54,006 nt of DNA. Source: an uncultured Candidatus Saccharibacteria bacterium. GTDB taxonomy: Bacteria; Patescibacteriota; Doudnabacteria; UBA920. Position 1 is the first letter of the stretch. Each line of letters opens with the position of its first letter. A program made the position numbers and the translations under genes. Under the pieces are notes generated by a model, which made no database searches, was not told the DNA's origin, and was given only the letters and a program-made list of their open reading frames with translations. Positions 2,985 to 53,533 of this stretch are shown piece after piece. The DNA lies in NCBI GenBank assembly GCA_964524915.1, contig CAZGEB010000003.1, forward strand, positions 3,263-57,268. Direction: 5' to 3'.

Positions 2985-5018
2985 ATGGAAAGAATCAAGC
3001 GGCATTTGTTTTGGGTACTCCCATCTCTAATTTTTCTGACAGCCCTAGCCTTTAGAACCTACAAACTTTTTATACTCCCAGCCGGACTTTTTCCCGATGA
3101 AGCAGCTAACGGACTGGACATTAATTTAATGGAGCAAGGCCATCTTCAGCCATTTTACGAAAGAGGTAATGGCAGAGAAGCCTTGTTTTTTTATATGCTT
3201 TGGGGTAGTGTAAAAATTTTTGGCAGAAGTCCTTTTGCCCATCATTTAGTCTCAGCCCTGGTTGGCACCCTGGCTGTAGCGGCTTGCTATTTTGTAACCA
3301 AAGAAATATTCAGACTCAAGGCTCACTCCTCACGTCTCACGGCTTATCTGGCCGCCTTCCTCATGGCCGTCTCTTCCTGGCACGTAGTTTTATCCCGCAC
3401 AGCCTTTAGGGCCAATTTAATTCCACTTTTGTCAGCCCTCACTCTGTGGGCGATGTTGAAAATAGTAACAAGAGACAAGCAAAAAGTAACAAGTAAACAG
3501 AATCCCGCTGCAAAATCGCTATTCGCTATTCGCTATTCGCTATTCCCCATCCTTTTCGGCATTTTCTTCGCCCTTGGATTTTATACCTACATAGCTTTTC
3601 GCATCATGATTCCGCTTGTGGGTATTTTGATTCTCTGGCCAACCGCGGCCTTTCTTCTGTCATCCCGTGCTACGACACGGGATCTTTACTTAATTTCTAA
3701 TAGCGAACAAAAAAGTGAAGCCGCCGAACTCCATACGGACAATAAAACAAAAAACGATTTCGGATCAAAACTCAAAATATTATTTCAAAATTTTTGGAAA
3801 CCTTTTTTGATTGCCGCAGTCAGTTTTGTAATAGTCATCTCCCCACTAGCTCATTATTTCTATACTCACCCAGGCAGCTTTGTTGGCCGAAGCGGACAAG
3901 TAAGTGTGTTTAATGTGGAATTAAATCATGGAGATCTAATCGGCACTATTTGGCAAGTAAGCAAGGACTCCATACTCGCCTACTTTACCCACGGAGATGT
4001 AAATTGGCGACACAATATTTCAGGCTTTCCTTTTCTTTCTCCTTTCATCTCGCCTTTTTTCGCCATTGGCTTAATTCTGTGTCTCTTGTTCGCTATTCGC
4101 TACACGCTAAGGCCTATACGCTATCGCCAGAACTACCCTGAATTTCTCCTTACTGGATGGTTTTTTGCCATGCTCTTGCCGGTGATCATGACGGCCGAAG
4201 GCATCCCTCACGGACTAAGAAGTATCGGCACTATTCCAGTAGTATTTATTATCACAGCTTATGGAATGTGTAAGGTTTATAATTGTCTCATGTTGTATGT
4301 CATCCCGGACAAGGCCGAGGCTTTGAGAGGCCGTGATCCGGGATCTTTATTAGAAAGCAAGGATACGGATGCTGAAAAAATATTGCAAGTAAGCAAAGAT
4401 CCCGGACATTTTCCCAAAGCGGAAAATTCCGGGATGACAGAAAAGATTGTCCGCGGGCTATCTTTTCTATATATTGCGTTTCTCCTCATCGCCTTACCCG
4501 TTCAAACTTATCAACTCTATTTTGTTACGGCTGCCAATTCTTCTGAAAACTACGAAGCTTTTCGTGGCGATCTGACAGTTGTCAGCGAATATTTAAAACA
4601 GTATGGACACAGAGAAACCACTTATTTAATTCTAGATAAATTTTCTGTGCAAACCACGGACTACCTCACTACCAAAGTCGGCAAGACTTCTTGCGACAGA
4701 GACTCCGCCTATCGCCCAAATAACTGTATAGATGATGCAAGTAACAAACCTTATACTCAAGTAGACCCAGAGGATTCTTGGCTAGGAGGTATGGCCCCCT
4801 CTCCTTCTGAGGAGAGGGCTGGGAAGAGGTTGGCTTCCGATAATACCAAACCTTCCCCTTACACTTATGGACTTAAAAGCGGAGACGAAATCGTTTTTAC
4901 CATGAGTTCACTTTTCGACATTAAAAAATTCAAACAGTACCACCCGAATGTAAAACTAAAACTTTTTGAAAAAAACACTGCGGGAAAATACATTATGGCA
5001 GTATATGTGGTTCAGTAA
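2985..5018 (+). CDS. GT-C fold glycosyltransferase, ArnT/PMT-like (GT39/GT83 type)
   Basis: N-terminal LFPDEAANGLD loop motif, many TM helices and a soluble C-terminal domain. The gene is interrupted by several repeat-derived peptide segments. Confidence 0.75.
   Translation: MERIKRHLFWVLPSLIFLTALAFRTYKLFILPAGLFPDEAANGLDINLMEQGHLQPFYERGNGREALFFYMLWGSVKIFGRSPFAHHLVSALVGTLAVAACYFVTKEIFRLKAHSSRLTAYLAAFLMAVSSWHVVLSRTAFRANLIPLLSALTLWAMLKIVTRDKQKVTSKQNPAAKSLFAIRYSLFPILFGIFFALGFYTYIAFRIMIPLVGILILWPTAAFLLSSRATTRDLYLISNSEQKSEAAELHTDNKTKNDFGSKLKILFQNFWKPFLIAAVSFVIVISPLAHYFYTHPGSFVGRSGQVSVFNVELNHGDLIGTIWQVSKDSILAYFTHGDVNWRHNISGFPFLSPFISPFFAIGLILCLLFAIRYTLRPIRYRQNYPEFLLTGWFFAMLLPVIMTAEGIPHGLRSIGTIPVVFIITAYGMCKVYNCLMLYVIPDKAEALRGRDPGSLLESKDTDAEKILQVSKDPGHFPKAENSGMTEKIVRGLSFLYIAFLLIALPVQTYQLYFVTAANSSENYEAFRGDLTVVSEYLKQYGHRETTYLILDKFSVQTTDYLTTKVGKTSCDRDSAYRPNNCIDDASNKPYTQVDPEDSWLGGMAPSPSEERAGKRLASDNTKPSPYTYGLKSGDEIVFTMSSLFDIKKFKQYHPNVKLKLFEKNTAGKYIMAVYVVQ
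3516..3543 (+). repeat. Heptamer tandem array (TCGCTAT)x4, in frame in GT-C gene 1
   Basis: Four perfect copies, translated as SLFAIRYSLF. A degenerate second tract lies at about 4087-4130. Confidence 0.9.
3657..3686. mobile_element. Family-A hairpin element, single module, in frame in a GT-C gene
   Basis: CTGTCATCCCGTG-CTACGA-CACGGGATCTTTA. It is 31 of 32 nt identical to the intergenic copy at 21767-21798 and is translated as LSSRATTRDL. Confidence 0.8.
4298..4440. mobile_element. Family-A composite mini-element (two inverted hairpin modules plus spacer), in frame
   Basis: Left end TGTCATCCCGGACAAGG..TCCGGGATC (4298-4346), right end GATCCCGGACA..TTCCGGGATGACA (4397-4439). The outward termini are a perfect 12-bp inverted repeat TGTCATCCCGGA. 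Translated as VIPDKAEALRGRDPGS..KDPGHFPKAENSGMT. Confidence 0.8.
4795..4833 (+). repeat. Family-B element, in frame in GT-C gene 1
   Basis: CCCTCTCC-TTCTGA-GGAGAGGG-CTGGGAAGAGGTTGG, translated as PSPSEERAGKRL. Confidence 0.8.
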
Positions 5019-5021
5019 GTC

Positions 5022-5049
5022 AAGAATAGCGAATAAAGAATAAAGAATT
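5022..5049 (+). repeat. Heptamer array (AAGAATA-like)x4 abutting the ATG of ORF 5050
   Basis: AAGAATA GCGAATA AAGAATA AAGAATT, followed directly by ATG. Confidence 0.8.
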
Positions 5050-5469
5050 ATGAAAAAAGAAACCCCACGAGCAAGCCAAGTGGAAAAACTCAGACAAATC
5101 GCCAAAGAACTGGCATATCGGGCGATAGAAATTTCTAATAAATACTGCGACGCGGAACAAGGGATGGATGGTTGGAGCATGCATGATTTGGTTGGCTCTA
5201 TTGCCGGGGGTGCTGCCGCGGCAGCAGAAATAGATGTTTTAGAAGAGACCCCAGGAAAACACGACGAAGAAATATCAGAAAGAATGCGATTAATGAACTT
5301 GTATTTAGAACTATTAGAAAGAAATGCAGAAGCTCGCCAGCAAGAATTGCAATCTGAAAAACGCGGCAATGAGCAAGCTTGGCTGGCAGCCCTCAAAGCT
5401 AGAGAACAAGGACTTTCACATCACACAGAATATATAAAAGCTGTATTAAAACAATTTAACTATCTATAG
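5050..5469 (+). CDS. Hypothetical helical/coiled-coil protein
   Basis: 139-aa ORF with an ATG start and a charged helical composition, lying between the two GT-C genes. The antisense ORF 4956..5396 looks like a shadow. Confidence 0.5.
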   Translation: MKKETPRASQVEKLRQIAKELAYRAIEISNKYCDAEQGMDGWSMHDLVGSIAGGAAAAAEIDVLEETPGKHDEEISERMRLMNLYLELLERNAEARQQELQSEKRGNEQAWLAALKAREQGLSHHTEYIKAVLKQFNYL

Positions 5470-5492: not shown

Positions 5493-7334
5493 ATGACCAA
5501 ATATAAAAACTATTTATTGTTGGGTATTATAGTTACTGTGGGACTAGGGATGCGGATTTTTCACAATCTAGATATTTCCCTTTGGCATGATGAGGCTTTT
5601 TCAGCACTGCTCATAAAATATCCATGGGGAGAAATGATGCATAGAATTGGTCTAGACGTGCATCCACCTATGTACTATATAGCTTTAAGATTTTGGAGTT
5701 ATATTTTTGGCGACTCACTGGCCGCTCTCCGAGGGTTTTCTATTTTCTTTGGAACAGCAACGATCATAGCAGTGTATGAATTGGTGAAGGCGATTACGAG
5801 TGGCGAGTGGCGAGTGACTAGCACAAAACAAAACTTTTCTGTCATCCCGACCTCCTCTTCTGTCATCCCGGCGGAGGCCGGGATCCACACAAAGCTGGAA
5901 AAATCAAAAGCAATAGATGATAAAGAAAAATACATGGATCCCGGTCTTCCCGCGGTCGCCCAAAGCAGCTCCCTTGTAGAAACCGGGATGACAAGAAATC
6001 TAGTCACTCACAATACGATATACGCTCCACTCCTGGCAGCTCTTCTTGTGGCGATCAATCCTTTTCAAATTGGTTTTTCTCTAGAGGCCCGCATGTATAC
6101 TTTTGGCGCTTTTTTGGCTGTACTAGCTGCGTATTTTCTTGTCCGTGCATTAAAAGCTACAAGCTACAAGCTACAAGCTACAAGCTATTTTATGTTTGCG
6201 GTAGCTTCCGGACTAGCCATACTTACTCATTATTATCTGATCTTCACTATAGCAGCACTATGTTTGTATGGACTCTTCCAAACAGCTACAAGCTACAAGC
6301 TACAAGCTACAAGCTTAAAAGCACAAATAGCAAATTACAAATCTAAAACTTGGCAATTAATCTTTTCTTATATTATTATCGGAGGATCCTTCCTTCCCTG
6401 GCTAAAAATATTTTTCTTTCAGTTCAAACAAGTAGGAAACGGGTACTGGATCCCAAAAATGGACCTCTGGAGCATGCCATCCACTATTTACGAAATGCTA
6501 GTAGGCGCTGGGGTAGATGCCCACAAAACCAGCACACAAATAATTCTGATTCTGGTAACGGCTGCGATTGTTTATATTACGATTTCATTTTTACGCAAAT
6601 CAAATCTCGCTTACAAAGGCTTGATTATTTTTGCCTGGCTAGCTCCTTTTGTGGGCTCGCTACTTTTTGCAGCGCTTGCCAAACTAAAAGGCAGCGATTC
6701 CTCTGTGTACTTGATTCGCTATTTTGCTTTTTCAGCTCCCTTTTTTAGTATAATGCTCGCCACGTGGCTAGGAGAATTACGGGTTATACCTGCCCGCTCG
6801 GATGGTGATAGTTACGGGTTACGGGTTGCAAAACTCAGGATCTTTATTCTTTATTCTTTATTCTTTATTCTGCTAATAACCAATCTCTACACTTTTTCAC
6901 ACTACTGGAAAGAACTAAATGTAAAAGAAAAACCAGGCATGAAAGCCGCCGTGGAACTTTTAAAAAATAATACCAAGCAAGGTGATATTTTGATCGTGGG
7001 AAGCAGCTTTGAATTTTTTAATCTGAAGTATTACTTGAACCAGCTATCAGCTAACAGCTATCAGCTAACAGCTAAGTTGTACAGTGGTGGACAAACAACT
7101 ATAGACAACATGCCGCACTTTGCTGGCACGGCAATTCTAACTAACGAGGATTTGCTTCCAAATTTTGAAAGCATTGATTCTGGTAATACTGTATGGCTGC
7201 TTTGGACCAATGGTTTTGGTGGAAATAAACCAGAAGTACCAAGTAATTGGACGCAAGAAGAAGAACACGGCTTCGCAGAAGTCAGACCATATGTAGGCAC
7301 TTGGATTGTAGTGGATAAATATAAAATCAAATAA
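5493..7334 (+). CDS. GT-C fold glycosyltransferase, ArnT/PMT-like (second paralog)
   Basis: ISLWHDEAFSALL motif after TM1, multiple TM helices and a soluble C-terminal domain. It carries many repeat-derived insertions. Confidence 0.75.
   Translation: MTKYKNYLLLGIIVTVGLGMRIFHNLDISLWHDEAFSALLIKYPWGEMMHRIGLDVHPPMYYIALRFWSYIFGDSLAALRGFSIFFGTATIIAVYELVKAITSGEWRVTSTKQNFSVIPTSSSVIPAEAGIHTKLEKSKAIDDKEKYMDPGLPAVAQSSSLVETGMTRNLVTHNTIYAPLLAALLVAINPFQIGFSLEARMYTFGAFLAVLAAYFLVRALKATSYKLQATSYFMFAVASGLAILTHYYLIFTIAALCLYGLFQTATSYKLQATSLKAQIANYKSKTWQLIFSYIIIGGSFLPWLKIFFFQFKQVGNGYWIPKMDLWSMPSTIYEMLVGAGVDAHKTSTQIILILVTAAIVYITISFLRKSNLAYKGLIIFAWLAPFVGSLLFAALAKLKGSDSSVYLIRYFAFSAPFFSIMLATWLGELRVIPARSDGDSYGLRVAKLRIFILYSLFFILLITNLYTFSHYWKELNVKEKPGMKAAVELLKNNTKQGDILIVGSSFEFFNLKYYLNQLSANSYQLTAKLYSGGQTTIDNMPHFAGTAILTNEDLLPNFESIDSGNTVWLLWTNGFGGNKPEVPSNWTQEEEHGFAEVRPYVGTWIVVDKYKIK
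5797..5817 (+). repeat. Heptamer array (CGAGTGG)x3, in frame in GT-C gene 2
   Basis: CGAGTGG CGAGTGG CGAGTGA, translated as SGEWRVT. Confidence 0.8.
5839..5995. mobile_element. Family-A composite mini-element with an extra partial terminus, in frame
   Basis: Partial CTGTCATCCCGA (5839-5850), then the full module TGTCATCCCGGC-GGAG-GCCGGGATCC (5861-5886). An AT-rich spacer follows, then the inverted module GGATCCCGGTCTTCCCGCGG..GAAACCGGGATGACA (5936-5993). Confidence 0.8.
6155..6187 (+). repeat. Heptamer array (AGCTACA)x4+, in frame in GT-C gene 2
   Basis: Four perfect copies plus a partial copy, translated as KATSYKLQATSY. Confidence 0.9.
6284..6316 (+). repeat. Heptamer array (AGCTACA)x4+, second copy in GT-C gene 2
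   Basis: Four perfect copies plus a partial copy, translated as TATSYKLQATSLK. Confidence 0.9.
6777..6868 (+). repeat. Composite of TTACGGG heptamers, a GC-rich core and (TCTTTAT)x4, in frame in GT-C gene 2
   Basis: TTACGGG TTATACC TGCCCGCTCGGATGGTGATAG TTACGGG TTACGGG .. TCTTTAT x4 (6841-6868), translated as LRVIPARSDGDSYGLRVAKLRIFILYSLFFIL. Confidence 0.8.
7041..7075 (+). repeat. Heptamer array (CAGCTAW)x5, in frame in GT-C gene 2
   Basis: CAGCTAT CAGCTAA CAGCTAT CAGCTAA CAGCTAA, translated as QLSANSYQLTAK. Confidence 0.85.
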
Positions 7335-7391: not shown

Positions 7392-8456
7392 CTATTCAGC
7401 TACCTTCCAAGGCAATTTTTCTGCACACGGCGTAGACTCTAAGCAGAGATACCCTCTTCCAGCATACCGCATATCCAAATAAACGATTTTTTGTAAACGG
7501 TCACGAGACTGTTTACTCAAAACCAAATCCAGCTGAGATTTTAAATCATCTGGATTTTGTTTTAATTGCAAAAGCAAATAAAAACTCCTCTCCGTACCAA
7601 GAACGGACTTGGCCTCCAAAACCAGCTCCCCAGACAATTCATCTTGCTGTTTGTAAATAATATCACGGGGCAAGCTATTAGTCTGGATCAAAGGATCACC
7701 TGTAGTGACATCGTCGCCAAAAATCTTTTCTAACGCTTTTTCTTGAGGCTTTTCTAAAAGCACCAAAGGTAAAACTTCAATTCCCAAAACATTAGATATC
7801 CCAGACTGCACTACAGCACGAGTCAATCCAGACATCTTTATAGCCAAGTCCTTGTTTAAATTTTCCCCGGATATAACTCCACTGAGGCCAGCATTCCATC
7901 GTAACTTAGGCACTCCAGAAGAGGCAGGATCATTTAGATCATTCTGAAAAAGATAAAGACCATCCTCACCAAAAATTTTATTTTTTCCATCCTGCTCTAC
8001 TTTAAAAGTAGGGGTGCGTGGTTGTAATTGTATCAAGACTTTGCTGGGCCAATCCTCCTTTACAGAGATAACCTCCAAAACATCTGATCTTTTTTCCAGC
8101 AAACGAGTCAGATCATCTGTATCGAAAAGTAAGAGGCTCTGTTCACGCATACCAAAAAAACGACTGTTGGATAAATACTCTTTCACTTGAGAGACGACAC
8201 TCTGATTATTTTCACCCAAACCATCAACTACAATTTCTTTGATTTGAAAATAAGAACCAAAAATTAAATAATAAAAAATCAACAAAGTAGGCACAAGACA
8301 CCCCAGTAAAATATTTCTGAGTAGCTCCTTCTTTCCCCACTTCTTTTTCACCATTGGCAAAGTTGGCCTAGCCGCTGCACCAAAATTAAAAAATCTAGAG
8401 AGGAAGGAAACTCGAACTTTTTTATGATTGTCTGTTTTTACTTCATGTAAACGCAT
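7392..8456 (-). CDS. ftsQ: Cell-division protein FtsQ-like (single TM plus POTRA-like domain)
   Basis: Basic N-terminus, one TM (LLGCLVPTLLIFYYLIF), then IKEIVVDGL as at the start of a POTRA domain. The gene lies directly downstream of murF. Confidence 0.5.
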   Translation of the reverse strand: MRLHEVKTDNHKKVRVSFLSRFFNFGAAARPTLPMVKKKWGKKELLRNILLGCLVPTLLIFYYLIFGSYFQIKEIVVDGLGENNQSVVSQVKEYLSNSRFFGMREQSLLLFDTDDLTRLLEKRSDVLEVISVKEDWPSKVLIQLQPRTPTFKVEQDGKNKIFGEDGLYLFQNDLNDPASSGVPKLRWNAGLSGVISGENLNKDLAIKMSGLTRAVVQSGISNVLGIEVLPLVLLEKPQEKALEKIFGDDVTTGDPLIQTNSLPRDIIYKQQDELSGELVLEAKSVLGTERSFYLLLQLKQNPDDLKSQLDLVLSKQSRDRLQKIVYLDMRYAGRGYLCLESTPCAEKLPWKVAE

Positions 8457-8509
8457 GCGGTTTTGTTCTCAAAAAATATAACGCTGAATAAACGATACCA
8501 ATATTTTTA

Positions 8510-9808
8510 TTACAATTTCTTTTGCCAGCCCGCATTTTGACGACACAAAAGATCCACAGCCCTCATGGGTTCTGACATAATCTCTTTCACAATCTTTTCC
8601 ATACGCATACCTTGACTACCCTTCACCAAAACAATTGTGTTTTCTGTGATCATCTCCTGCAGCAAACTCACAGCCTCTAGTGATTTAGAAAACCAATGAA
8701 TAGCATCTTTTTTCATACCAGCCCGCTCTGCTGCAAGTGCCGTAGACTTGGACAAATCGCCCACACAAATCAGTGAGTCAAATTTTAGCTCTGCCACCCG
8801 CCTGCCAATATCTTCATGCATAGCAACAGTCTCACCACCCAATTCAAGCATATCTCCCAGAACAGCAATTCTTTTATAACTTTTCCAAATGGCAAAAGCT
8901 GTCTTTAATGTATCCAAAGCCACCAGCGCAGAAGACGGGGAAGAATTATAAGTATCGTCAATAATCAAACTTTTCTTAATACCAGAAATCACATTTAGCC
9001 TTCCTGGTTGCGGCCTATAATTCAAAAGCCCTTTTTTGATATCCTCAGAAGAAATCTTCAAAGCCTCTGCCACAGCCACCGCAGCGAGACCTGCCAATAC
9101 ATGAGCCTCACCTATAGCCCCCAAAGTAAACCTGGGCACCCTAGTTGGAGTTTTGACAAAAACCTCTGTTTCAATAGCACCCTCAAAAGACTCACTTACA
9201 TCATCTGCGTGAACTGCGGCATCTTCAAAACCATAAATAGCATAATCCAAAAACTTAATATCTTTCCTAGATTCAAAAATTTTCTTTGCCTGCAAAACCG
9301 CCGCTTCGTTACTCCGATTGATTATGGCAGTTCCTCCAGAGACCAAACTAGAAATCAATTTTCCTTTTTCATCCGCAAGATGCTCCCTACTTTCAAAAAA
9401 TTCTAAGTGCGACTCTCCAACTCCTGTCAAAATGGCAATATTTGGTCTTGCGATATTTATCAACATCTCCATTTCCCCCGGCTTGTCAATCCCGTACTCC
9501 AAAACCAAAACTTCTGGATATCTATATTTAAACAAAATCAAATACGCCCCCCACAAAAAAACTTTCAGCCACCCCAACAAATTTCTCTCAGGGCTATCTT
9601 GCATCAAAACTCCCAAAGGCAACCCAAGTAAAGTGTTTAGATTTCTAGCTGGCGTAAAACTTCTAAAATGCTCTTTGACCACACAAAAAACCGCCTGCCT
9701 TGTAGAGGTTTTTCCTACACTGCCAGTAATGCCTATAATCAAAGGCTTGTATTTTGCTAATACTCTTTTTGCCAAAAAGGCCAAGATTTTTTCTATAAAA
9801 TGTCGCAT
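8510..9808 (-). CDS. murF: Mur ligase, most like UDP-MurNAc-tripeptide--D-Ala-D-Ala ligase
   Basis: P-loop IIGITGSVGKTSTRQA, a central Mur ligase domain and a C-terminal domain (VLGDMLELG). The size of 432 aa fits MurF. Confidence 0.7.
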   Translation of the reverse strand: MRHFIEKILAFLAKRVLAKYKPLIIGITGSVGKTSTRQAVFCVVKEHFRSFTPARNLNTLLGLPLGVLMQDSPERNLLGWLKVFLWGAYLILFKYRYPEVLVLEYGIDKPGEMEMLINIARPNIAILTGVGESHLEFFESREHLADEKGKLISSLVSGGTAIINRSNEAAVLQAKKIFESRKDIKFLDYAIYGFEDAAVHADDVSESFEGAIETEVFVKTPTRVPRFTLGAIGEAHVLAGLAAVAVAEALKISSEDIKKGLLNYRPQPGRLNVISGIKKSLIIDDTYNSSPSSALVALDTLKTAFAIWKSYKRIAVLGDMLELGGETVAMHEDIGRRVAELKFDSLICVGDLSKSTALAAERAGMKKDAIHWFSKSLEAVSLLQEMITENTIVLVKGSQGMRMEKIVKEIMSEPMRAVDLLCRQNAGWQKKL

Positions 9809-10367: not shown

Positions 10368-11744
10368 TTATTTACCCTTAATTACTTCACTTCCAACATA
10401 CTTTTGCAAAATCTCAGGCACTTTCACAGATCCATCTGCTTGCTGATAGTTTTCCAAAATGGCGATCAAAATACGTGGAGATGCCACTGCGGTATTATTG
10501 AGAGTAAAAGCATATTTCACCTCACCTTTACTGTCGCGATAACGAATATTAAGCCTGCGAGCTTGCCAGTCAGTTAGATTTGAGTCTGAATGAGTTTCCC
10601 CGTAATTTTTTCTAGCTGGCATCCAAGTCTCTATGTCGTACATTTTATATTTACCCATACCCATATCGCCAGTACATACATGAATCACGCGGTATGGTAG
10701 CTTCAAATCTTGCAGCATTTCTTCGGCGATTTCTCTGAGTGCCTCATGGAGACGTTCACTTTCCTCCACCTCCGCTTTACACACAACCACCTGCTCCACC
10801 TTCATAAACTCATGAACACGATACAAACCCTTAGTGTCCTTACCGTAACTGCCAATCTCACTTCTATAGCAAGGGGAAACGCCACACACTTGAATTGGTA
10901 AATCTTTTTCTTCTAATATCTTATCTGCATAATAAGCAATCAAAGAAGGTTCAGATGTTCCCGCCAAAAACATCGGCTCCCTCCCCTTCTGAGGGGAGGG
11001 TTGGGGAGAGGTTGTATCATCATTAACCAAATCATGTTCTTCTGCCACTTGATAAATTTCTTCTCTACCCTGAGGCAACATACCAGCTCCCTGCAATGCA
11101 AATTCCCGAACAATCGTTGGAGTCGCCATCAAAGTAAAACCTTTGGCACGAAGTTTTTCTAGGGCATGCATCATGAGACCATAATGCATAAGCACTAATT
11201 CATTTTTCAAATAATACCCACGAAAACCCGCGGTCTTTACTCCAGCTTCCAAATCCATCAAATTTAAATTCACACCAATCTCTGCATGATCCTTAACTTC
11301 AAAATCAAATTTAGTTGGCACCTCGCTGACTTTGGGATCATCCGCAGACATAGCGCCAGTAGCCACACTCCAGTAACGCCAAGGAATATTTCCACTATCG
11401 TCTTTACCCACCGGCACTTCTGGTGCGGGAATATTTGGAATTTGCAACATCAGAGCATCAAACTGCTTTTGCACTTCGCGAAGTTTGGCTTCCATTTCTG
11501 TTTGCCTGGAATCCACTTCTTTCATCTCGAGCAGCTTTGACGCCTTCTCATCAGCAGACATTTTTGCAATATCCAAAGACACTGCGTTTTTGGCGGCCCG
11601 GAGAGCATCTACCCCCGCCACCAATTCACGTCTTTGCAAATCCCAATCCAAAAGTTGGTCTATCACATTTGCATCAATGCCTTTTTTGCTGCAAGCATCT
11701 TTGACCTTGTCCGCATTTTCTCTAATAAATTTGATATCGAGCAT
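10368..11744 (-). CDS. serS: Seryl-tRNA synthetase
   Basis: MLDIKFIRENADKV N-terminus, a coiled-coil arm, and class II motifs GLYRVHEFMKVEQ and TLNNTAVASPRILIAILENYQ. It contains an in-frame family-B element (TTSPQPSPQKGREP). Confidence 0.95.
   Translation of the reverse strand: MLDIKFIRENADKVKDACSKKGIDANVIDQLLDWDLQRRELVAGVDALRAAKNAVSLDIAKMSADEKASKLLEMKEVDSRQTEMEAKLREVQKQFDALMLQIPNIPAPEVPVGKDDSGNIPWRYWSVATGAMSADDPKVSEVPTKFDFEVKDHAEIGVNLNLMDLEAGVKTAGFRGYYLKNELVLMHYGLMMHALEKLRAKGFTLMATPTIVREFALQGAGMLPQGREEIYQVAEEHDLVNDDTTSPQPSPQKGREPMFLAGTSEPSLIAYYADKILEEKDLPIQVCGVSPCYRSEIGSYGKDTKGLYRVHEFMKVEQVVVCKAEVEESERLHEALREIAEEMLQDLKLPYRVIHVCTGDMGMGKYKMYDIETWMPARKNYGETHSDSNLTDWQARRLNIRYRDSKGEVKYAFTLNNTAVASPRILIAILENYQQADGSVKVPEILQKYVGSEVIKGK
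10977..11014 (+). repeat. Family-B element, in frame (antisense orientation) in serS
   Basis: CCCTCCCC-TTCTGA-GGGGAGGG-TTGGGGAGAGGTTG. It is read on the minus strand as TTSPQPSPQKGREP. Confidence 0.8.
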
Positions 11745-13655: not shown

Positions 13656-13734
13656 AGACTGCCCGCCAGTGAAAGGCTCAGGCAGGCGGGTGAATAGTGA
13701 CGAACCTTGTCCACCACTCACTTCTTATAGCACA

Positions 13735-13760
13735 CCCGCCATAGCATTAGCGGCGACGGG
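13735..13760 (+). repeat. GC-rich CCGCC hairpin (family D) abutting a heptamer array
   Basis: CCCGCCATAGCATTAGCGGCGACGGG. 22 of 26 nt are identical to the reverse complement of 52401-52428. Confidence 0.7.
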
Positions 13761-13765
13761 CTTCT

Positions 13766-13814
13766 CTTACTTCTTACTTCTTACTTCTTACTTCTTACTT
13801 CTTACTTCTTACTT
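13766..13814 (+). repeat. Heptamer array (CTTACTT)x7
   Basis: Seven perfect copies directly after the family-D hairpin. Confidence 0.9.
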
Positions 13815-13820
13815 CAAACA

Positions 13821-20503: not shown

Positions 20504-21754
20504 CTAAGATAGATAATCCACTAGATTTTCTATTGCCGTATTAGTAAAAAAGTTTTCTTGTCTCTTCTTCACTTCCACGCTTCCTTGCTCCAAAGTTTTT
20601 GTGGAAACCACTACGCGGTAAGGGATGCCGATGAGATCTGAATCCGCAAATTTTTCGCCAGCACTTACACCCTCCCTATCATCGTACAAGACTTCCACCC
20701 CGGCGTCCAGAAGCTCTTGATAAAGCTTATTTGTATGGGAAAAAACATTGTCTGCATCTTTCCCAGGTAGCGCTATTAAATGAACTTTAAAAGGCGCGAC
20801 CGCTTCTGGCCAAACAATCCCCTTTTCATCATTACTCTTTTCGGCAATTACACCCAAGAGTCTACTAATGCCAATTCCATAGCAGCCCATGACTGGATAT
20901 TGCAATTGTCCTGCTTCGTCCGTATACCCAAGCCCAAAATCCTTACCGTATTTTTGCCCCAAATCAAAAACATTACCAACTTCAGAAGCACGACCTATAT
21001 TTAAAACACCACCACACTCTTTAGGGCAAGTATCCCCCTCCTTTTGTTTACTAATTTCAGTATTAATACAGTAATCACATTTTTCACAATACAGAATATC
21101 ATCCTCACCAGCATCAGTTAGCACCATAAACTCGTAAGAAATCTTCTGAGTAAAATTACCGCCAGATGCCTCTGTCACTTTAGCCACCAGCCCAAGTCTT
21201 TTATAAATTTTCAAATACGCTTTCTTGACCTCTCCGTAAAATCGGTCAAAATCCTCCTGGCTAGAATGAAAACTATACATGTCTTTCATCAAAAATTCAC
21301 GGCCGCGAAGTAATCCGGATTTTGCACGCAGTTCATCTCGAAATTTCCACCCCACTTGATAAACAGCTACAGGCAAATCTTTGTACGACTGCACTCTTCC
21401 CAAAACTAAAGGCGTTACAACCTCTTCCTCGCTTTGTCCTAGCGCATAATCTTTTTCAGTACGACTCTTGATTTTGAATAAAACATCTATATTGTCCCAA
21501 CCCCCGGTAGTCTGCCATATTTCTTTTGGGTGCAAAGCTGGCATCAAAATTTCTTGTCCACCTACAGCATTCATTTCTTCCCGCACAATATTAGAAATCT
21601 TATTGAGCGACCTAAGTCCCAAAGGTAGGTAAGTATAAACACCTGCCATAAGTTTACTCACAAACCCAGCTTGTTCCAAAAGCCGACCATTTACAGTAGG
21701 CTCATCTTGTGAGACTGTCTTGCTAGTTTTTAAAAAATATTTTGATTGTCGCAT
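20504..21754 (-). CDS. proS: Prolyl-tRNA synthetase, compact form lacking the INS editing domain
   Basis: MAGVYTYLPLGLRSLNKI, motif 2 FRDELRAKSGLLRGREFLMKDMYSF, motif 3 MGCYGIGISRLLGVI and a C-terminal anticodon-binding domain. It is only 416 aa, with a CxxC..CxxxC segment where INS normally sits. Confidence 0.9.
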   Translation of the reverse strand: MRQSKYFLKTSKTVSQDEPTVNGRLLEQAGFVSKLMAGVYTYLPLGLRSLNKISNIVREEMNAVGGQEILMPALHPKEIWQTTGGWDNIDVLFKIKSRTEKDYALGQSEEEVVTPLVLGRVQSYKDLPVAVYQVGWKFRDELRAKSGLLRGREFLMKDMYSFHSSQEDFDRFYGEVKKAYLKIYKRLGLVAKVTEASGGNFTQKISYEFMVLTDAGEDDILYCEKCDYCINTEISKQKEGDTCPKECGGVLNIGRASEVGNVFDLGQKYGKDFGLGYTDEAGQLQYPVMGCYGIGISRLLGVIAEKSNDEKGIVWPEAVAPFKVHLIALPGKDADNVFSHTNKLYQELLDAGVEVLYDDREGVSAGEKFADSDLIGIPYRVVVSTKTLEQGSVEVKKRQENFFTNTAIENLVDYLS

Positions 21755-21766
21755 AAAGATAGGCTT

Positions 21767-21798
21767 CTGTCATCCCGTGCCACGACACGGGATCTTTA
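21767..21798. mobile_element. Family-A hairpin element, intergenic (proS start / GIY-YIG stop)
   Basis: CTGTCATCCCGTG-CCACGA-CACGGGATCTTTA. Confidence 0.8.
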
Positions 21799-21804
21799 AT
21801 TTAT

Positions 21805-22101
21805 TTACTGAATTATTTCACTATATAAATCTTTCCATTGAGAGTTAGACTTGTTAATCAGTTCCAATTTCCATTGCCTTTTCCACTCCTTGACTTGCTT
21901 TTCTTTTTTAATAGCTGTTTCTATTGAGTTTGTGGACTCAAACCAAACTAACAGGTGAACAAAATATTTTTCTGTAAATCCTTTTATCAGATTATGCTTA
22001 TGTTCATAAACCCTTCTGATCAGATCATTAGTCACGCCGACATGCAGAACTCCATAGGGTTTACTTGCCATGATATAGACATAATAGACATTGCTCTGCA
22101 T
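21805..22101 (-). CDS. Stand-alone GIY-YIG nuclease-domain protein (COG2827/YhbQ-like)
   Basis: YYVYIMASKPYGVLHVGVTNDLIRRVYEHK..FTEKY..LVWFE..AIKKEKQVKEWKRQWK. It is flanked on both sides by family-A hairpins. Confidence 0.85.
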   Translation of the reverse strand: MQSNVYYVYIMASKPYGVLHVGVTNDLIRRVYEHKHNLIKGFTEKYFVHLLVWFESTNSIETAIKKEKQVKEWKRQWKLELINKSNSQWKDLYSEIIQ

Positions 22102-26567: not shown

Positions 26568-26619
<52 letters not shown>

Positions 26620-26631
26620 AGTAATTATACC

Positions 26632-27795
26632 ATGCAAACTCCTCCCCCCAATTTAATAGTCATTGCCGGCCCCACATCCAGCGGAAAATCTGAGCTAGCG
26701 GTCAAAATCGCAAAAAAAATTGGCGGGGAAATCATTTCCGCAGATTCCCGCCAAGTTTACCGCGGTTTAAATATTGGAACAGGCAAAGTTGAGGGAGAAT
26801 GGCAGAAAGTATCCTTAATCCGTAATCCTTTATCCTTAACAAACACAAAACAGCAAACAGGAAAAGATAAAAATGTAATTTCAAATTCAAACCCCCCGCT
26901 CTTAGTCAAGGATCAAAGATTAAAGATTAAGGATAGCAATGTTTTTGTTTACAAAAAAGTATTACACCACTGTATAGACTTTGTAAACCCCAAAAAACAA
27001 TACACTGTCAATGATTTTAAAAAAGATGGACAAAAAGCCATTGAGGATATTTATTCTCGCGGAAAAATCCCGATCATCTGTGGCGGCACAGGCCACTATA
27101 TAGATGCACTGATTTTTGATCAAAATATTCCAGAAGTTCCACCAGATGAAAAATTTAGAAAAAAAATGGAAAAAAAATCCGCAGAAAATCTTTTCTTGCT
27201 ATTGAGCAAAAAAGATCCAGCCCGCGCGAGTAATATAGATAGAAATAATAAACGTCGCCTCATCCGCGCCCTAGAAATCATCCACCATACCAAAAAACCC
27301 GTCCCCTATTTTTCCCCCTCCCCTAGTGAGGGGAGGGCTGGGGAGAGGTTGCACCACGACCGCATAGACCTGCCCACTCCTGCTGACCGGGAATCCATAT
27401 TATCAAATCCTGGATCCTGGATCGCAGTCGCAGAGCCTCCTTTGTCCGGGACGACAAGATTAGAAATAATACTTTTGACTCCACCCCGCCAAGAACTTTA
27501 CCAAAAAATCGAAAAGCGCCTCATTCAAAGAGTGAAGATGGGCATGGTTGAAGAAGTGCTAAAGTTACACCAAAACGGCCTATCCTGGAAACGCATGGAG
27601 TCCCTCGGTCTAGAGTACCGTCACATTGCAAGATTTTTACAAGAAAATAAAAATGTATTCCTAAAAACTAAAAACTCGCAACTAAAAACTCAATTTCTAT
27701 CTTCCTCTCACTTTCAAACTCTCCTTCAAGAAAGCAAAAATTATAGTAAACGCCAAGAAACTTGGTTTAGAAAATATAAAACAGCCGCAAACTAA
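26632..27795 (+). CDS. miaA: tRNA dimethylallyltransferase
   Basis: IAGPTSSGKSELAV P-loop, ISADSRQVYRGLNIGTGK and GGTGHYIDALIF. At 387 aa it is enlarged by several repeat-derived insertions. Confidence 0.9.
   Translation: MQTPPPNLIVIAGPTSSGKSELAVKIAKKIGGEIISADSRQVYRGLNIGTGKVEGEWQKVSLIRNPLSLTNTKQQTGKDKNVISNSNPPLLVKDQRLKIKDSNVFVYKKVLHHCIDFVNPKKQYTVNDFKKDGQKAIEDIYSRGKIPIICGGTGHYIDALIFDQNIPEVPPDEKFRKKMEKKSAENLFLLLSKKDPARASNIDRNNKRRLIRALEIIHHTKKPVPYFSPSPSEGRAGERLHHDRIDLPTPADRESILSNPGSWIAVAEPPLSGTTRLEIILLTPPRQELYQKIEKRLIQRVKMGMVEEVLKLHQNGLSWKRMESLGLEYRHIARFLQENKNVFLKTKNSQLKTQFLSSSHFQTLLQESKNYSKRQETWFRKYKTAAN
26811..26934. repeat. Insertion in miaA bounded by inverted heptamer arrays
   Basis: ATCCTTA ATCCGTA ATCCTTT ATCCTTA (26811-26838) .. 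CAAGGAT CAAAGAT TAAAGAT TAAGGAT (26907-26934), translated as VSLIRNPLSLTN..KDQRLKIKDS. Confidence 0.8.
27314..27351 (+). repeat. Family-B element, in frame in miaA
   Basis: CCCTCCCC-TAGTGA-GGGGAGGG-CTGGGGAGAGGTTG, translated as PSPSEGRAGERL. Confidence 0.8.
27386..27458. mobile_element. Degenerate family-A-like module fused to heptamers, in frame in miaA
   Basis: ACCGGGAATCC..ATCCTGGATCCTGGATCGCAGTCGCAG..GTCCGGGACGACAAG, translated as DRESILSNPGSWIAVAEPPLSGTT. Confidence 0.45.
27661..27695 (+). repeat. Degenerate heptamer array (CTAAAAA-like)x5, in frame in miaA
   Basis: CTAAAAA CTAAAAA CTCGCAA CTAAAAA CTCAATT, translated as LKTKNSQLKTQF. Confidence 0.7.
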
Positions 27796-34469: not shown

Positions 34470-36086
34470 TTACTGTAATTTTTTACGCAAGACTTCATTT
34501 ACTAGACTGGGATTGCCCTGGCCTTTCAATTCTTTCATACACTGCCCCACCAAAAAACCAAAAGATTTTTCTTGTCCAGCTTTAAAGTCCTGCACAGCCT
34601 TTTCATTTTCCGATAAAACTTTGTCTATAGCGGCTTCAATTACAGTAGCATCACTCACCTGAGACAGCCCAAGATCTTTGACTATTTCACTTGGATCGCC
34701 ACCCTTTTCAAACATCACTTTGAAAATTTGCTTTGCGGCCGCAGAAGACACTTCTCCCCGGCTTATCATCAAAATCAATTCCGCTAAATTTTCTGGCGTT
34801 ACAAAAGTTTCATCTGGATTTTTTCCTGCAATTTTCAATGCTGCAGAAAAATCCTGCAAACACCAGTTGGCGGCAAGTTTGATCAGCTTGACCAGATTTG
34901 AATCAATGCTGGATTCCGGTCTTCCCGCGCTCGAGGACTCGCTTGTGGAAACCGGAATGACGGGAGAGGGTGACAGATCAGACAGCCATGCGACTATTTC
35001 ACTCACAACATTTTCAAAATAAAAAGTTAATTCTTTCCAATTCAAAAGATTTTCAATGTCTGCAGCGGGAAGTGCGTATTCACCAGCAAACCTCAGTCTT
35101 TTTGCAGACGGCAATTCAGGCAATTCTGCACGCAATTTTTCTAAATACTCTTTGGTAAAATGCAGTGGTGGTAAATCTGGATCTGGTAAATATCTATAGT
35201 CATTTGCTTCTTCTTTGCTTCTCTGCTCTACAGTTTTATTTAGCTTCTCGTTCCACCCCATGGTAACTTGCTTAGGGGTCACGCCCTGAAGTCGCAATTC
35301 ACTTTGCCTTACTATTTCGTAATTAATCGCTTGCTCTACAAATTTAAAAGAATTAATATTTTTCACTTCCACTTTATAAGGCGGCAAACCCTCTTCACCA
35401 GGAAGCCTCACAGAAATACTTGGCTCGCACCTCATACTCCCCTTTTCCATATCTGCATCGCTGGCCCCCACATAGCGAGCAATGCGCTGTAATTCTTCCA
35501 AATATTTTCTAGCTTCTTCAGCTGACTCTATAACTGGATGAGTAACTATTTCCAAAAGTGGTGTACCGGCACGATTATAATCAACCAAAGAATAAGGCAA
35601 GCCATCTGGGTGCATATTTTTGCCCGCATCCTCTTCTAAATGCGCGCGTTGAATCAGCACCCGCTTTGCATGTACATTTTTCCTCTCTCCTTGTGAGGAG
35701 AGAGCGCCGCCGCCTTGGGCGGGAGAGAGGTTGTCTGAAACTTGTATTTCTATCCACCCCTCTTGGGCGATCGGCTGATCCAACTGAGAAATCTGATAAC
35801 CTTTTGGTAAATCAGGATAAAAATAATGCTTACGATCAAATTTACTCCACTCGTCTATTCTGCAATTCAAAGCCAAACCCATCATAGCAGCCAACCTCAC
35901 GGCTTCTTCATTAATCACAGGCAACGTCCCTGGATGCGCCAAAACCACTTCATCAATATTGGTATTTGGATCTTTTACGCTTTGATCATTTGGGGCAGAA
36001 GAGAACATCTTCGACTTGGTACGAAGTTGAATATGCACCTCAAGCCCAATCACTGGTTTTAATAATTGTATATTATTGTCTATCAT
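34470..36086 (-). CDS. gatB: Asp/Glu-tRNA amidotransferase subunit B
   Basis: IGLEVHIQL, RAHLEEDAGK, VEVKNINSF, EANDYRYLPDPDLPP and a C-terminal YqeY-like domain. It carries two in-frame repeat elements. Confidence 0.95.
   Translation of the reverse strand: MIDNNIQLLKPVIGLEVHIQLRTKSKMFSSAPNDQSVKDPNTNIDEVVLAHPGTLPVINEEAVRLAAMMGLALNCRIDEWSKFDRKHYFYPDLPKGYQISQLDQPIAQEGWIEIQVSDNLSPAQGGGALSSQGERKNVHAKRVLIQRAHLEEDAGKNMHPDGLPYSLVDYNRAGTPLLEIVTHPVIESAEEARKYLEELQRIARYVGASDADMEKGSMRCEPSISVRLPGEEGLPPYKVEVKNINSFKFVEQAINYEIVRQSELRLQGVTPKQVTMGWNEKLNKTVEQRSKEEANDYRYLPDPDLPPLHFTKEYLEKLRAELPELPSAKRLRFAGEYALPAADIENLLNWKELTFYFENVVSEIVAWLSDLSPSPVIPVSTSESSSAGRPESSIDSNLVKLIKLAANWCLQDFSAALKIAGKNPDETFVTPENLAELILMISRGEVSSAAAKQIFKVMFEKGGDPSEIVKDLGLSQVSDATVIEAAIDKVLSENEKAVQDFKAGQEKSFGFLVGQCMKELKGQGNPSLVNEVLRKKLQ
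34911..34962. mobile_element. Family-A hairpin module, in frame in gatB
   Basis: GGATTCCGGTCTTCCCGCGCTCGAGGACTCGCTTGTGGAAACCGGAATGACGG. It has the same architecture as 5936-5993 and is translated on the minus strand as PVIPVSTSESSSAGRPESS. Confidence 0.8.
35682..35733 (+). repeat. Family-B element variant with an extra CCGCC hairpin, in frame (antisense) in gatB
   Basis: CTCTCTCC-TTGTGA-GGAGAGAG-CGCCGCCGCCTTGGGCGGGAGAGAGGTTG. It is read on the minus strand as NLSPAQGGGALSSQGER. Confidence 0.7.
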
Positions 36087-36268: not shown

Positions 36269-37744
36269 TCAACTTAACTTTGGAAAATTCTTATGCCAAT
36301 CTGTTGCTTCTTGGAAGGCCATGCCTACATCAAACAAAACTTGCTCGCCCCACTGCGGACCAATCAATTGCAATCCTACTGGTAGATCCACGTCTCCACC
36401 ATCCACAGGCCTACCAAAACCGCAAGGCAAAGACAAAGCAGGGAGCCCCGCCAAAGAAGATGGGATATTGAGCTGATCTGCAATATAACCAAAAAGAGGA
36501 TCATCAGCTGCACCTTCTATTTTCACCGCCACATTTGGACTACTTGGAGCTGCCAAAACATCTACTTTTTTAAATACTTCTGCAAATTCATCTATAATGA
36601 GTCGCCGCACTTTCTGCGCCCGTTTGTAATAAGCATCGTAATAACCAGAAGACAATACATAAGTACCAGTCAAAATTCTTCTCTTTGCCTCATCGCCAAA
36701 ACCCTCGTCGCGAGTTTTTTCGTACACATCCAAAAGACTATTCGCCTCACTAGACACATGACCATAACGAATACCATCAAAGCGAGACAAATTTGAAGCT
36801 ATCTCAGCCGGGGCTACAATAGCATAAACCAAAGATCCGTATTTTGTATTTGGTAAATCCACCTCCACAAGCTCGGCCCCCAATTTTTCTAATTCTCTGA
36901 TACCATCCATAACCCTTTCTCTTACATCCCCCTCCATACCATCTACAAAGTACTGTTTGGGAACCCCAACCTTAAGCCCCTGCAAGCTTGTAGCTTGTAG
37001 CTTGTAGCTTGTAGCCTTATCTCCAGTCGTGGAGTCTTTCGGGTCTCTTCCAGACATAACATTTGCCAAAACTATCAAGTCTTTTACAGAGTAAGCATGA
37101 GCTCCAGGACTATCCAAAGAAGATCCCATAGCAATCACTCCATATCTAGAAACTCTTCCATAGGTAGGCTTCCAACCACTTACTCCGCAAAGCGAAGAAG
37201 GCTGACGAATACTTCCGCCAGTTTCCGTACCCAAAGTCCAAGGAGCCAAGCCCGCCGCCAAAGAAGCCGCGCTTCCACCACTAGATCCACCAGGAATTCG
37301 AGATTTATCCCATGGATTTTTACTGGGACCAAAAGCAGAAGTAGCAGTAGAAGATCCGTGAGCAAACTGGTCCAAATTAGTTTTACCCAAAAGTACACCT
37401 TTTTGTTCTTTGATTTTTGCAATCACAGTAGCATCAAAAGGCGGTGTATAATTTTCCAAAATTTTGGAGGCGGCTGTGGTTTTCACTCCACGAGTGACAA
37501 ATAAATCCTTTGCTGCATACGGAATTCCACAAAGCAGTGGATTTTCTCCAGACAATTTCATAAACTCATCTGCTTGTCTTGCCTCTTCTAGAGCTTCATT
37601 TTCACAAACTGTAATAAAAGAATTTAATTCCCCATCGAGCTTTTGAATACGCGCCAAAAAATACTTCGTCATTTCCACTGACGAAATTTCTTTATCGTCC
37701 AACAACTTTCTTAATTCAGAAATTCCTAAATACTCTAATTGCAT
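36269..37744 (-). CDS. gatA: Asp/Glu-tRNA amidotransferase subunit A
   Basis: Amidase signature GGSSGGSAASLAAG and GTETGGSIRQPSSLCGV. It carries an in-frame heptamer array (KATSYKLQATS). Confidence 0.95.
   Translation of the reverse strand: MQLEYLGISELRKLLDDKEISSVEMTKYFLARIQKLDGELNSFITVCENEALEEARQADEFMKLSGENPLLCGIPYAAKDLFVTRGVKTTAASKILENYTPPFDATVIAKIKEQKGVLLGKTNLDQFAHGSSTATSAFGPSKNPWDKSRIPGGSSGGSAASLAAGLAPWTLGTETGGSIRQPSSLCGVSGWKPTYGRVSRYGVIAMGSSLDSPGAHAYSVKDLIVLANVMSGRDPKDSTTGDKATSYKLQATSLQGLKVGVPKQYFVDGMEGDVRERVMDGIRELEKLGAELVEVDLPNTKYGSLVYAIVAPAEIASNLSRFDGIRYGHVSSEANSLLDVYEKTRDEGFGDEAKRRILTGTYVLSSGYYDAYYKRAQKVRRLIIDEFAEVFKKVDVLAAPSSPNVAVKIEGAADDPLFGYIADQLNIPSSLAGLPALSLPCGFGRPVDGGDVDLPVGLQLIGPQWGEQVLFDVGMAFQEATDWHKNFPKLS
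36985..37012 (-). repeat. Heptamer array (AGCTTGT)x4, the reverse complement of the AGCTACA arrays, in frame in gatA
   Basis: Four perfect copies, read on the minus strand as KATSYKLQATS. This is the same peptide as in GT-C gene 2. Confidence 0.9.
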
Positions 37745-52374: not shown

Positions 52375-52401
52375 AGCAGTAAGTAGTAAGTAGTAAGTAG
52401 T
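52375..52401 (+). repeat. Heptamer array (AGTAGTA-like)x4, 17 nt upstream of the dedA start, fused to a family-D hairpin
   Basis: AGCAGTA AGTAGTA AGTAGTA AGTAGT, then CCGCCGCCGCTAAAGCTATGGCGG. Confidence 0.85.
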
Positions 52402-52428
52402 CCGCCGCCGCTAAAGCTATGGCGGATG
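52401..52428 (-). repeat. GC-rich CCGCC hairpin (family D) abutting a heptamer array
   Basis: TCCGCCGCCGCTAAAGCTATGGCGGATG, whose reverse complement is CATCCGCCATAGCTTTAGCGGCGGCGGA. Confidence 0.7.
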
Positions 52429-52451
52429 CACCATAAGCAGTAGGCAAAAAG

Positions 52452-53497: not shown

Positions 53498-53526
53498 GAT
53501 CCCGTGTCGCGGCACGGGATGACAGA
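53498..53526. mobile_element. Family-A hairpin element, inverted orientation, intergenic
   Basis: GGATCCCGTGTCGCGGCACGGGATGACAG, the reverse complement of CTGTCATCCCGTGCCGCGACACGGGATCC. Confidence 0.8.
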
Positions 53527-53533
53527 AAATAAT

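Follow-up and report, generated by a model that had tools for sequence, protein, structure and literature searches.

We analysed a stretch of 54,006 nucleotides (hereafter, the window) from contig CAZGEB010000003.1 of an uncultured member of the Patescibacteria, in which a short hairpin repeat, here called family B, lies in frame inside four unrelated genes. The window is about 91% coding, 41 of its 48 open reading frames (ORFs) are on the minus strand, and the GC skew on the plus strand is strongly negative. The named relatives of its proteins are labelled 'Patescibacteria group bacterium' and 'Candidatus Doudnabacteria'; an exact protein record is present for the GatB of the window (P0121) and there is none for its seryl-tRNA synthetase (SerRS). 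No tRNAs were found in the window, and no Rfam family matched anywhere in it at gathering score. The host genes and the four copies are the following (aa, amino acids; bit scores are from the covariance model introduced below):

2985-5018, plus strand: host gene 1, glycosyltransferase-like membrane protein, 677 aa, weak PMT_2 match
10368-11744, minus strand: host gene 2, serS, seryl-tRNA synthetase, 458 aa (Pfam)
26632-27795, plus strand: host gene 3, miaA, tRNA isopentenyltransferase, 387 aa, with two large inserts (Pfam)
34470-36086, minus strand: host gene 4, gatB, 538 aa, with two hypervariable inserts (Pfam)
4795-4834, plus strand: family-B copy 1, short 'Y' type; arms 4797-4805 and 4810-4818, loop TCTG, tail 4819-4832
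10977-11016, plus strand: family-B copy 2 (serS); arms 10979-10987 and 10992-11000, loop TCTG, tail 11001-11014; 67.5 bits
27314-27353, plus strand: family-B copy 3 (miaA); arms 27316-27324 and 27329-27337, loop AGTG, tail 27338-27351; 64.6 bits
35682-35733, plus strand: family-B copy 4 (gatB), by its layout a long 'X' sub-type; hairpin 35683-35691 and 35696-35704 (CTCTCTCCT/AGGAGAGAG)

The family-B consensus pattern was searched for in the window with three mismatches allowed and with 100 shuffles as the control. Three matches were obtained, each without a single mismatch (4797-4832, 10979-11014 and 27316-27351, all on the plus strand), and none of the 100 shuffles gave any. The hairpin part, CTCYCC-N6-GGRGAG, occurs four times, the extra occurrence being 35685-35702. 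A covariance model trained on 25 copies of the type found in the Candidate Phyla Radiation (CPR), and applied to the whole window with its filters off, recovered three full copies (60-68 bits) and matched the gatB copy in two parts, as a hairpin (21.6 bits) and a tail (12.1 bits). The lowest of the full copies is copy 1 (59.6 bits), whose tail, CTGGGAAGAGGTTG, differs from the consensus by a single G>A. No further or decayed copy in the window reached an E value better than 0.3 with this model. Since the scan finds nothing beyond noise, the window holds three plus one family-B copies and no hidden decayed ones, and a chance origin is expected for none of the four. Thus, the original prediction of four in-frame copies in unrelated genes was borne out, as three exact consensus matches and one variant. 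It had also described the copies as lying in both orientations, which is correct relative to the genes but not on the DNA: all four are on the plus strand, the sense copies in two of the few plus-strand genes and the antisense copies in minus-strand genes. The copies are 6-16 kb apart and inside genes, and do not show the regular spacing of CRISPR arrays. Further matches to GAGAGGTTG at 21418, 32206 and 48035 come without the hairpin, and were set aside as chance.

In the window copies, a 9-bp stem, CCCTCYCCT/AGGRGAGGG, closes a 4-nt loop; YT comes next, and then a G-rich tail, GGGGAGAGGTTG, whose sequence nearly repeats that of the 3' arm of the hairpin. When folded as DNA, the copies gave free energies of -11 to -14.4 kcal/mol (z = -2.1 to -3.8), with the 9-bp stem in all of them. 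Among 27 non-identical copies from low-GC contigs, conservation extends from C-Y, two bases before the stem, to TTR, and the flanks are unrelated, so the unit measures 36-38 nt. The sole variable stem position covaries, as C:G or T:A, in 158 of 161 copies (these being copies, not independent events), and copies that occupy one and the same gene position in contigs L130 and L136 also show the switch, as do the genes for Kbl. The gatB copy is built differently: its hairpin, TCTCTCC/GGAGAGA, is followed by an 18-nt spacer (35705-35722) with a GC hairpin of its own, CCGCC/GGCGG, and then by the tail GAGAGAGGTTG (35723-35733). Composite elements in contigs L142, L135, L146 and L147 have this same architecture as their second, inverted half. 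Judged by this arrangement, the gatB copy is a distinct, 52-nt long sub-type of family B.

Translation reproduced the peptides quoted in the original prediction, including their positions before FLAGTSEP in SerRS and RAHLEEDAGK in GatB. Copy 1 is read in sense as PSPSEERAGKRL within ORF 2985-5018 (the element itself giving APSPSEERAGKRL), and copy 3, also in sense, as PSPSEGRAGERL in MiaA (element, SPSPSEGRAGERL). Copies 2 and 4 are read in antisense, the former as TTSPQPSPQKGREP directly before FLAGTSEP (element, TTSPQPSPQKGRE) and the latter as LSPAQGGGALSSQGER before RAHLEEDAGK (element, NLSPAQGGGALSSQGER). Stretches derived from the element in the host proteins include ...DDTTSPQPSPQK and ...PSPSEGR. 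Note that host gene 1, which had been called a GT-C gene, does carry its copy, but its identity as a glycosyltransferase comes from a sub-threshold Pfam match to PMT_2 (24 bits against a cutoff of 26.1), and NCBIfam gave no match for it.

The original prediction had placed the elements in loops, and mapping SerRS onto 2dq0/2dq3 and an AlphaFold model, GatB onto 3al0_B and MiaA onto 2qgn agreed with it. In the alignment, SerRS residues ~237-256 have no counterpart in 2dq0/2dq3, and directly precede the strand with the TxE motif, FLAGTSEP. The AlphaFold model of SerRS built from a 120-sequence alignment had a mean predicted local distance difference test score (pLDDT) of 88 and a predicted template-modelling score (pTM) of 0.85, and its target-normalised template-modelling scores to solved SerRS structures were 0.87-0.92; an earlier run with a 15-sequence alignment (pLDDT 61) was too poor for use. 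In this model, pLDDT falls below 50 only at 242-249, inside the insert, and at 299-301, so that the insert forms the chief disordered segment. In GatB, the insert replaces the tip of a hairpin that reads EIDG-DEG-RKKVRI in Thermotoga maritima 3al0_B, and CPR homologues carry from 0 to ~50 unrelated residues at this point, a hypervariable loop. In MiaA, the element is within a 50-residue insert (residues 226-275) relative to 2qgn. By sequence alignment and the predicted model, as opposed to solved structures of the window proteins, the SerRS, MiaA and GatB elements are at loop positions compatible with the fold.

Both MiaA and GatB carry a second insert. That of MiaA comprises 53 residues (aa 57-109; 26800-26958 in the window) with no counterpart in solved MiaA structures, and coincides with a 126-nt imperfect palindrome whose arms are at 26810-26843 and 26902-26935; from its sequence, it looks like another in-frame palindromic insertion. 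The second hypervariable insert of GatB, LSDLSPSPVIPVSTSESSSAGRPESS (~34880-35000, aa ~363-402), is partly present in the homologue P0125, and absent or different in the others.

We next consider whether these copies are ancestral parts of their genes. The closest SerRS (P0001, from contig L001), which is 97% identical at the protein level, lacks ten residues exactly at the element, and at the DNA level the window gene has a net gain of 30 nt. The junction on the hairpin side is sharp, while on the tail side 33 nt are only ~52% identical in genes whose proteins are otherwise 97% identical. Among 120 SerRS homologues, the element was present in the window protein only (1/120), and the loop between fixed anchors varied from 23 to 43 residues. 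Three homologues of the glycosyltransferase-like protein (54-58% identical) that align across the region are without the element, and a 93%-identical fragment (P0506) has it. These comparisons of sequences support the view that the family-B copy in serS is a recent insertion and not ancestral.

Because 36 nt is a multiple of three, any insertion of the unit preserves the downstream frame. Moreover, the 36-mer is stop-free in five of its six frames, the sole stop being a TGA in the loop in sense frame 3, and none of the genic copies examined uses that frame: every one is open through the element. With a frame-neutral length and five open frames out of six, being 'in frame' needs little selection beyond a tolerant site. 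Residence in genes is equally undemanding here, as four out of four copies would be genic by chance with p ~0.68 in a window that is 91% coding. The original prediction had noted no intergenic copy in this window; this holds for the window only, as about half of the family is intergenic.

This was seen when metagenomes were scanned for the element in its CPR form, which gave 29 loci, mostly of 34-50% GC, with genic and intergenic copies in about equal parts. Contigs L124-L147 derive from samples of Hainich groundwater and peat. Intact in-frame copies with a long ORF on both sides were found in pyrF, uvrA, pepN, ligA, kbl, tatD, tkt, tsaD and a RibD_C-like ORF. Regarding these assignments, pyrF, uvrA, ligA, kbl, tkt and tsaD score above the cut-off of a curated NCBIfam equivalog model; for tatD it is a subfamily model that is passed, while pepN is below its cut-offs. 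Three reading frames and both gene orientations are used, giving the peptides PSPSEGRxGER, TSPQPSPxxGR and NLSPTLPxxGE; the recurring entity is therefore the DNA and not the peptide. The copies do not keep to any one place with respect to the starts, ends or domains of genes. Placement like that of a Shine-Dalgarno (SD) sequence, 8-10 nt before a start codon, was rejected as a general rule, being seen in a few intergenic cases only (for example, in L011). Singletons make up all four of the window copies and most of the genic ones. Intergenic copies are often composites of ~150 nt, in which a short module is joined to an inverted long module and the whole is closed by 7-nt complementary ends (GCGGAGC...GCTCCGC or GTGCAGT...ACTGCAC). 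Inverted doublets were present in L135, L142, L146, L147, L011 and L070, and also in frame in tatD and ligA. Mostly intergenic copies with many disrupted genes, which would have indicated ordinary decay, were not what we observed: the related contigs hold many in-frame copies and no obviously disrupted host gene, in a search that was not exhaustive.

Diverged copies (20-56 bits with the covariance model) occur in the same contigs as intact ones (up to 68 bits), and several of them are in frame in genes. Contig L151 has five copies within 5.9 kb, at least two of them inside tsaD. Diverged relatives with tails such as GGGGTGAGGG or TAGGGAGAGG were seen at L151 998-5198, L128 927-1016, L140 10192-10232 and L136 6352-7002, in frame in tsaD, ligA (as an inverted doublet), pepN and others. 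Their sequences suggest that related hairpin repeats form a superfamily.

The loops that host family B also turn over. In a set of 120 Kbl homologues gathered by protein similarity, the loop from LKEFTSR to RMLIATDG was empty in some and filled in others with varied inserts, of hairpin or tandem-repeat type. Family B is intact in at least four Kbl genes, with an identical tail, compensatory stem changes and four different loops. In a closer Kbl relative (91% identical), a tandem-repeat insert takes its place and is sharply bounded by the conserved flanks, and the turnover of this loop is faster than the divergence of the protein. Together with the serS junction, the Kbl loop suggests that whole variable loops may be exchanged or replaced. 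The same loops host unrelated hairpin inserts in other lineages; thus, a C/G-tract hairpin different from family B is present in the SerRS loop of 5 of the 120 homologues. One such case, in another CPR lineage (L002 10001-11494, SerRS P0041), is a C/G-tract double hairpin, ACCCCCCTGTATCCCCCCTCGAAGAGGGGGGAGGTAAGGGGGGT, in the same SerRS loop, read as NPPVSPLEEGGGKGGE.

A scan for a 33-nt core, with one genome per species, gave at least 119 loci. Its hosts, among the matches listed, include the Pseudomonas nitroreducens/citronellolis group, rumen Bacteroidaceae and Prevotellaceae, Saccharibacteria, Dehalococcoidia, Pirellulales, Planctomycetaceae, Verrucomicrobiaceae, Bradyrhizobium, a cyanobacterium and others. 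The core is present in no fewer than seven phyla (Patescibacteria, Bacteroidota, Pseudomonadota, Planctomycetota, Chloroflexota, Verrucomicrobiota and Cyanobacteriota), and since we estimate the information in the pattern at ~58 bits, chance is excluded as its source. The core is nearly invariant, and the loop, the end of the tail and the 5' flank are specific to each lineage. Pseudomonas copies are, by appearance, mostly intergenic. In rumen Bacteroidaceae, inverted doublets are in frame in ORFs that, by eye and without a family search, we take to be MutY, Mfd, aspartokinase-homoserine dehydrogenase, RNase HII, CobQ and threonine synthase. A scan of viral contigs gave two loci only (L153 and L154, both IMG/VR contigs), both of the Bacteroidaceae subtype. 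This subtype (loop ATTACG, tail ..AGAGGGTCT) has three copies in a 48.6-kb viral contig and one in another, and we speculate that such contigs might be a vehicle for spread. BLAST against annotated collections gave no plasmid match, and phage matches at chance level only.

What is family B comparable to? We found no description of it in the searchable literature, which is an absence of match and not proof of novelty. By analogy, it resembles the Rickettsia palindromic elements (RPEs), Rickettsia-specific families of about 100-150 bp. In the passages devoted to them in PMC5896051 and PMC3733652, which cite Ogata et al. (2000, 2002), RPEs appear as in-frame palindromes in unrelated genes. Like family B, they are dispersed palindromes, in frame and often in essential genes of a reduced genome, and intergenic as well; their translation adds surface segments that the fold can accommodate. 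Family B differs in its size (36-52 nt), in residing in Patescibacteria and in having a core present in many phyla, and it has no sequence similarity to RPEs, so the resemblance we claim is one of behaviour and not of membership.

Repetitive extragenic palindromes (REPs) are usually species-specific. As described in PMC3733652 and by Bertels & Rainey (2011, PMC3116915), REPs, bacterial interspersed mosaic elements (BIMEs) and REP doublets forming hairpins (REPINs) are imperfect palindromes of 20-40 nt in many copies, occurring as singletons and inverted doublets, as does family B, whose composites have a layout like that of REP doublets, BIMEs and REPINs; REPs also occur inside coding regions, including those of tRNA synthetase genes (Di Nocera et al. 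2013, PMC3733652). Family B is likewise a short dispersed palindrome, with 4 copies in the 54 kb of the window, and with 29 loci in metagenomes and at least 119 in genomes. However, it does not end in a GTAG or CGTC tag, the only conserved flanking bases in 27 CPR copies being C-Y (5') and TTR (3'); no gene for a REP-associated tyrosine transposase (RAYT) flanked by it was found in the ~8 kb scanned around each copy; its location is not mainly extragenic, with four out of four window copies and about half of the CPR-type copies in genes; and its core crosses phyla. Because the REP definition fails on the tag, the RAYT association and the extragenic location, we propose that family B works like REPs, not that it is one of them.

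[quoted passage not shown] Bacterial MITEs are similar to the ~150-nt family-B composites with their short terminal inverted complementarity, but with their 70-400 bp, terminal inverted repeats and direct repeats they are far larger than a single family-B unit, for which no direct repeats were seen. The small dispersed repeats of Nostoc and its relatives are reportedly mobile-looking, with a core of less than 30 nt embedded in hairpins, in genomes said to be rich in tandem heptamers. They share with family B the smallness and the heptamer-rich setting, but differ in sequence and phylum.

Taking this together, we consider it likely that family B is a selfish, non-autonomous hairpin repeat of the REP/MITE kind, whose copies are tolerated at places where their translation yields a loop, the situation first described for the RPEs. 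This explanation takes in the observed identity of the repeat, its hairpin, frame and loop position, its presence or absence between close relatives, its same behaviour in other genes and contigs, and the diverged copies beside intact ones. The element would be, or would recently have been, copied to new places in Patescibacteria genomes. As these are ~90% coding, most new copies would land in genes, and, the unit being a multiple of three and stop-free in five of six frames, such a copy would be translated, adding 10-12 residues rich in Pro, Ser, Gly, Glu and Arg. Copies would persist where the added stretch falls in a surface loop or at the tip of a beta-hairpin, and an element in a loop may also travel between strains with the whole variable loop, by homologous recombination at the conserved flanks. 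The original prediction had spoken of tolerated exaptation; what was demonstrated is tolerance.

Several observations weigh against this explanation. No transposase could be linked to family B: a regular-expression motif scan for RAYTs, in six frames and ~8 kb around each copy, over ~155 loci plus the window (~1.3 Mb of fetched loci), yielded one RAYT-like ORF, in L127, although given the type of scan and its range the absence of a linked gene is weak evidence. No target-site duplication was definable for the family-B copies. The close-range comparison of a filled and an empty site is a single one (serS and L001), and with its tail-side junction blurred over 33 nt it falls short of demonstrating clean cut-and-paste or copy-in. 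Copies at the same position agree fully in their stems and tail while the flanks in the gene are only 67-92% identical, so selection on the element itself is possible. Lastly, a near-identical core across phyla is untypical of REPs. As for the L127 ORF, we rejected it as the mobiliser of family B because it is flanked by a different 25-nt repeat. This locus (L127 8327-9093, on a CPR-like contig of 34% GC) has the RAYT-like Y1 (HUH) transposase ORF at 8411-9085, between its own 25-nt inverted repeats, TAAAGGGGTCAGGCACCTTTGATTT, and from its sequence looks like a REPtron of a different repeat family.

A rival idea is that family B is a functional element, a DNA or RNA structure kept by selection, for which the candidate roles are a universal host-factor site, a hairpin/G-quadruplex switch, ribosome pausing or mRNA stability, and SD/anti-SD mimicry. 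The nearly invariant core in at least seven phyla, with lineage-specific loops and flanks, fits this idea, as do the fully conserved stems and tail, with compensatory changes, in Kbl, PepN and TatD, whose flanks are 67-92% identical. So does the sequence as read, the non-CPR form, GGGAGAGGGCTGGGGAGAGGG, making a textbook G-quadruplex motif of four tracts and CCTCC/GGAGG being contained in the arms. But neither the 97%-identical SerRS nor 119 of 120 SerRS homologues have the element, close relatives have quite different inserts or none in the same loops, placement is not consistent with respect to gene starts, ends or domains, and many copies have decayed. Moreover, the same-position comparison is biased, since most loci were retrieved by an exact pattern, and we did not take conservation of orthologous copies as evidence of selection. 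We regard a functional element as unlikely, although the conservation of the core across phyla keeps it, or an explanation through a host factor, alive. Still less probable is an origin without any dedicated mobility, by homologous recombination of variable-loop 'cassettes' between diverged alleles, or by local template switching at hairpins. The whole serS variable loop between two conserved blocks, and not the 36 nt alone, differs from that of its close relative; the Kbl of L129 and L155 differ in a cassette-like manner, and the Kbl loop outpaces its protein. However, the 36-mer is found in more than 12 non-homologous genes and in intergenic DNA, and therefore at least one non-homologous insertion step is needed per site.

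Two further explanations concern the protein. The insert might remain untranslated, through ribosome bypass, as with the byps of yeast mitochondria and T4 gene 60, or through removal from the mRNA. Yeast mitochondrial byps, or GC clusters, are said to be skipped by the ribosome, so that the frame need not be kept, and like family B they are short GC-rich hairpin inserts in protein genes of an AT-rich, compact genome. A stable hairpin in a coding sequence, from a small GC-rich element in an AT-rich genome, is what this explanation would have. In contrast to byps, all genic family-B copies examined are open and in frame, with no incompatible frame or stop; the stop-bearing sense frame 3 is left unused, and the change between the filled and empty serS is a multiple of three (+30 nt). 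We judge bypass or removal very improbable. The other explanation, convergent selection of a peptide motif in different proteins (a Pro/Ser-rich linker or a binding site), deserves even less credence. The peptides are hydrophilic and loop-friendly, and two frames, those giving PSPSEGRxGER and TSPQPSPxxGR, dominate with 11 of the 13 independent genic sites, yet the same DNA gives at least three unrelated peptides in other frames and orientations, and identical DNA is also intergenic. The frame and orientation data effectively refute it.

On the core across phyla, we put forward, tentatively and as something we would not bet on, that the ~33-nt core CCCTCYCC-N6-GGRGAGGG-YTGGGGAGAGG could be a pan-bacterial mobile or recognised element, moved or bound by conserved machinery, which colonises loops in gene-dense genomes (CPR, some rumen Bacteroidaceae) and, with related hairpins, makes certain loops of SerRS, GatB, Kbl, TsaD, LigA and other essential enzymes fast-evolving 'landing pads'. 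If so, landing-pad loops would serve generally to diversify the loops of proteins that are otherwise highly conserved. A core shared across phyla is unusual for REP-like repeats and points to a conserved partner, and the interest of the family would be clearly greater if common machinery proved to be shared.

Proteins of the CPR are noted for extra segments that are hard to account for. At least some of them seem to be tiny palindromic repeats in translated form, and not functional domains particular to a lineage, and such segments can be masked or flagged by their DNA signature in annotation and structure prediction. The 36-nt unit is among the smallest repeats seen colonising essential genes, and its length and five open frames make it near-harmless by construction. 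The repeatedly hit loops (SerRS before the TxE strand, the GatB beta-hairpin tip, Kbl before RMLIATDG), which receive different hairpin families, provide a natural map of insertion-tolerant positions in essential enzymes. A replication-strand bias was also considered: in 20 of 30 copies, and in four out of four in the window, it is the C-rich DNA strand that carries the G-rich strand of the element, but this is not significant and is confounded with gene orientation.

The window contains other repeats. A second hairpin family, TTCTGTCATCCCGTGCYACGACACGGGATC, is present at 3654-3696, 21764-21806 and, on the minus strand, 53498-53527; its first copy is in frame in the glycosyltransferase-like gene (LLSSRATTRDLYLI), and the other two are in, or at the edge of, gaps between ORFs. 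An inverted pair of 46 nt, ACTTCTTATAGCACACCCGCCATAGCATTAGCGGCGACGGGCTTCT, 80% complementary, lies at 13720-13765 and 52396-52441, 38.6 kb apart, and from its sequence is probably another dispersed repeat family. Tandem heptamers occur at 3516-3551, 5017-5061, 6152-6200, 6281-6329, 13765-13815, 26574-26608 and 36984-37018, with the units (TCGCTAT)n, (GAATAAA)n, (AGCTACA)n and its inverse, (TCTTACT)n and (ACTAGCC)n; several are inside long ORFs and others between genes. Heptamer repeats are known in Nostoc genomes, and those of the window are reminiscent of them. Finally, a minus-strand ORF of 1496 aa (41904-46394), at a guess a large repetitive surface protein, has internal repeats of 277 nt and 85 nt and many runs of the GGTGGTGGAGG type on the plus strand.

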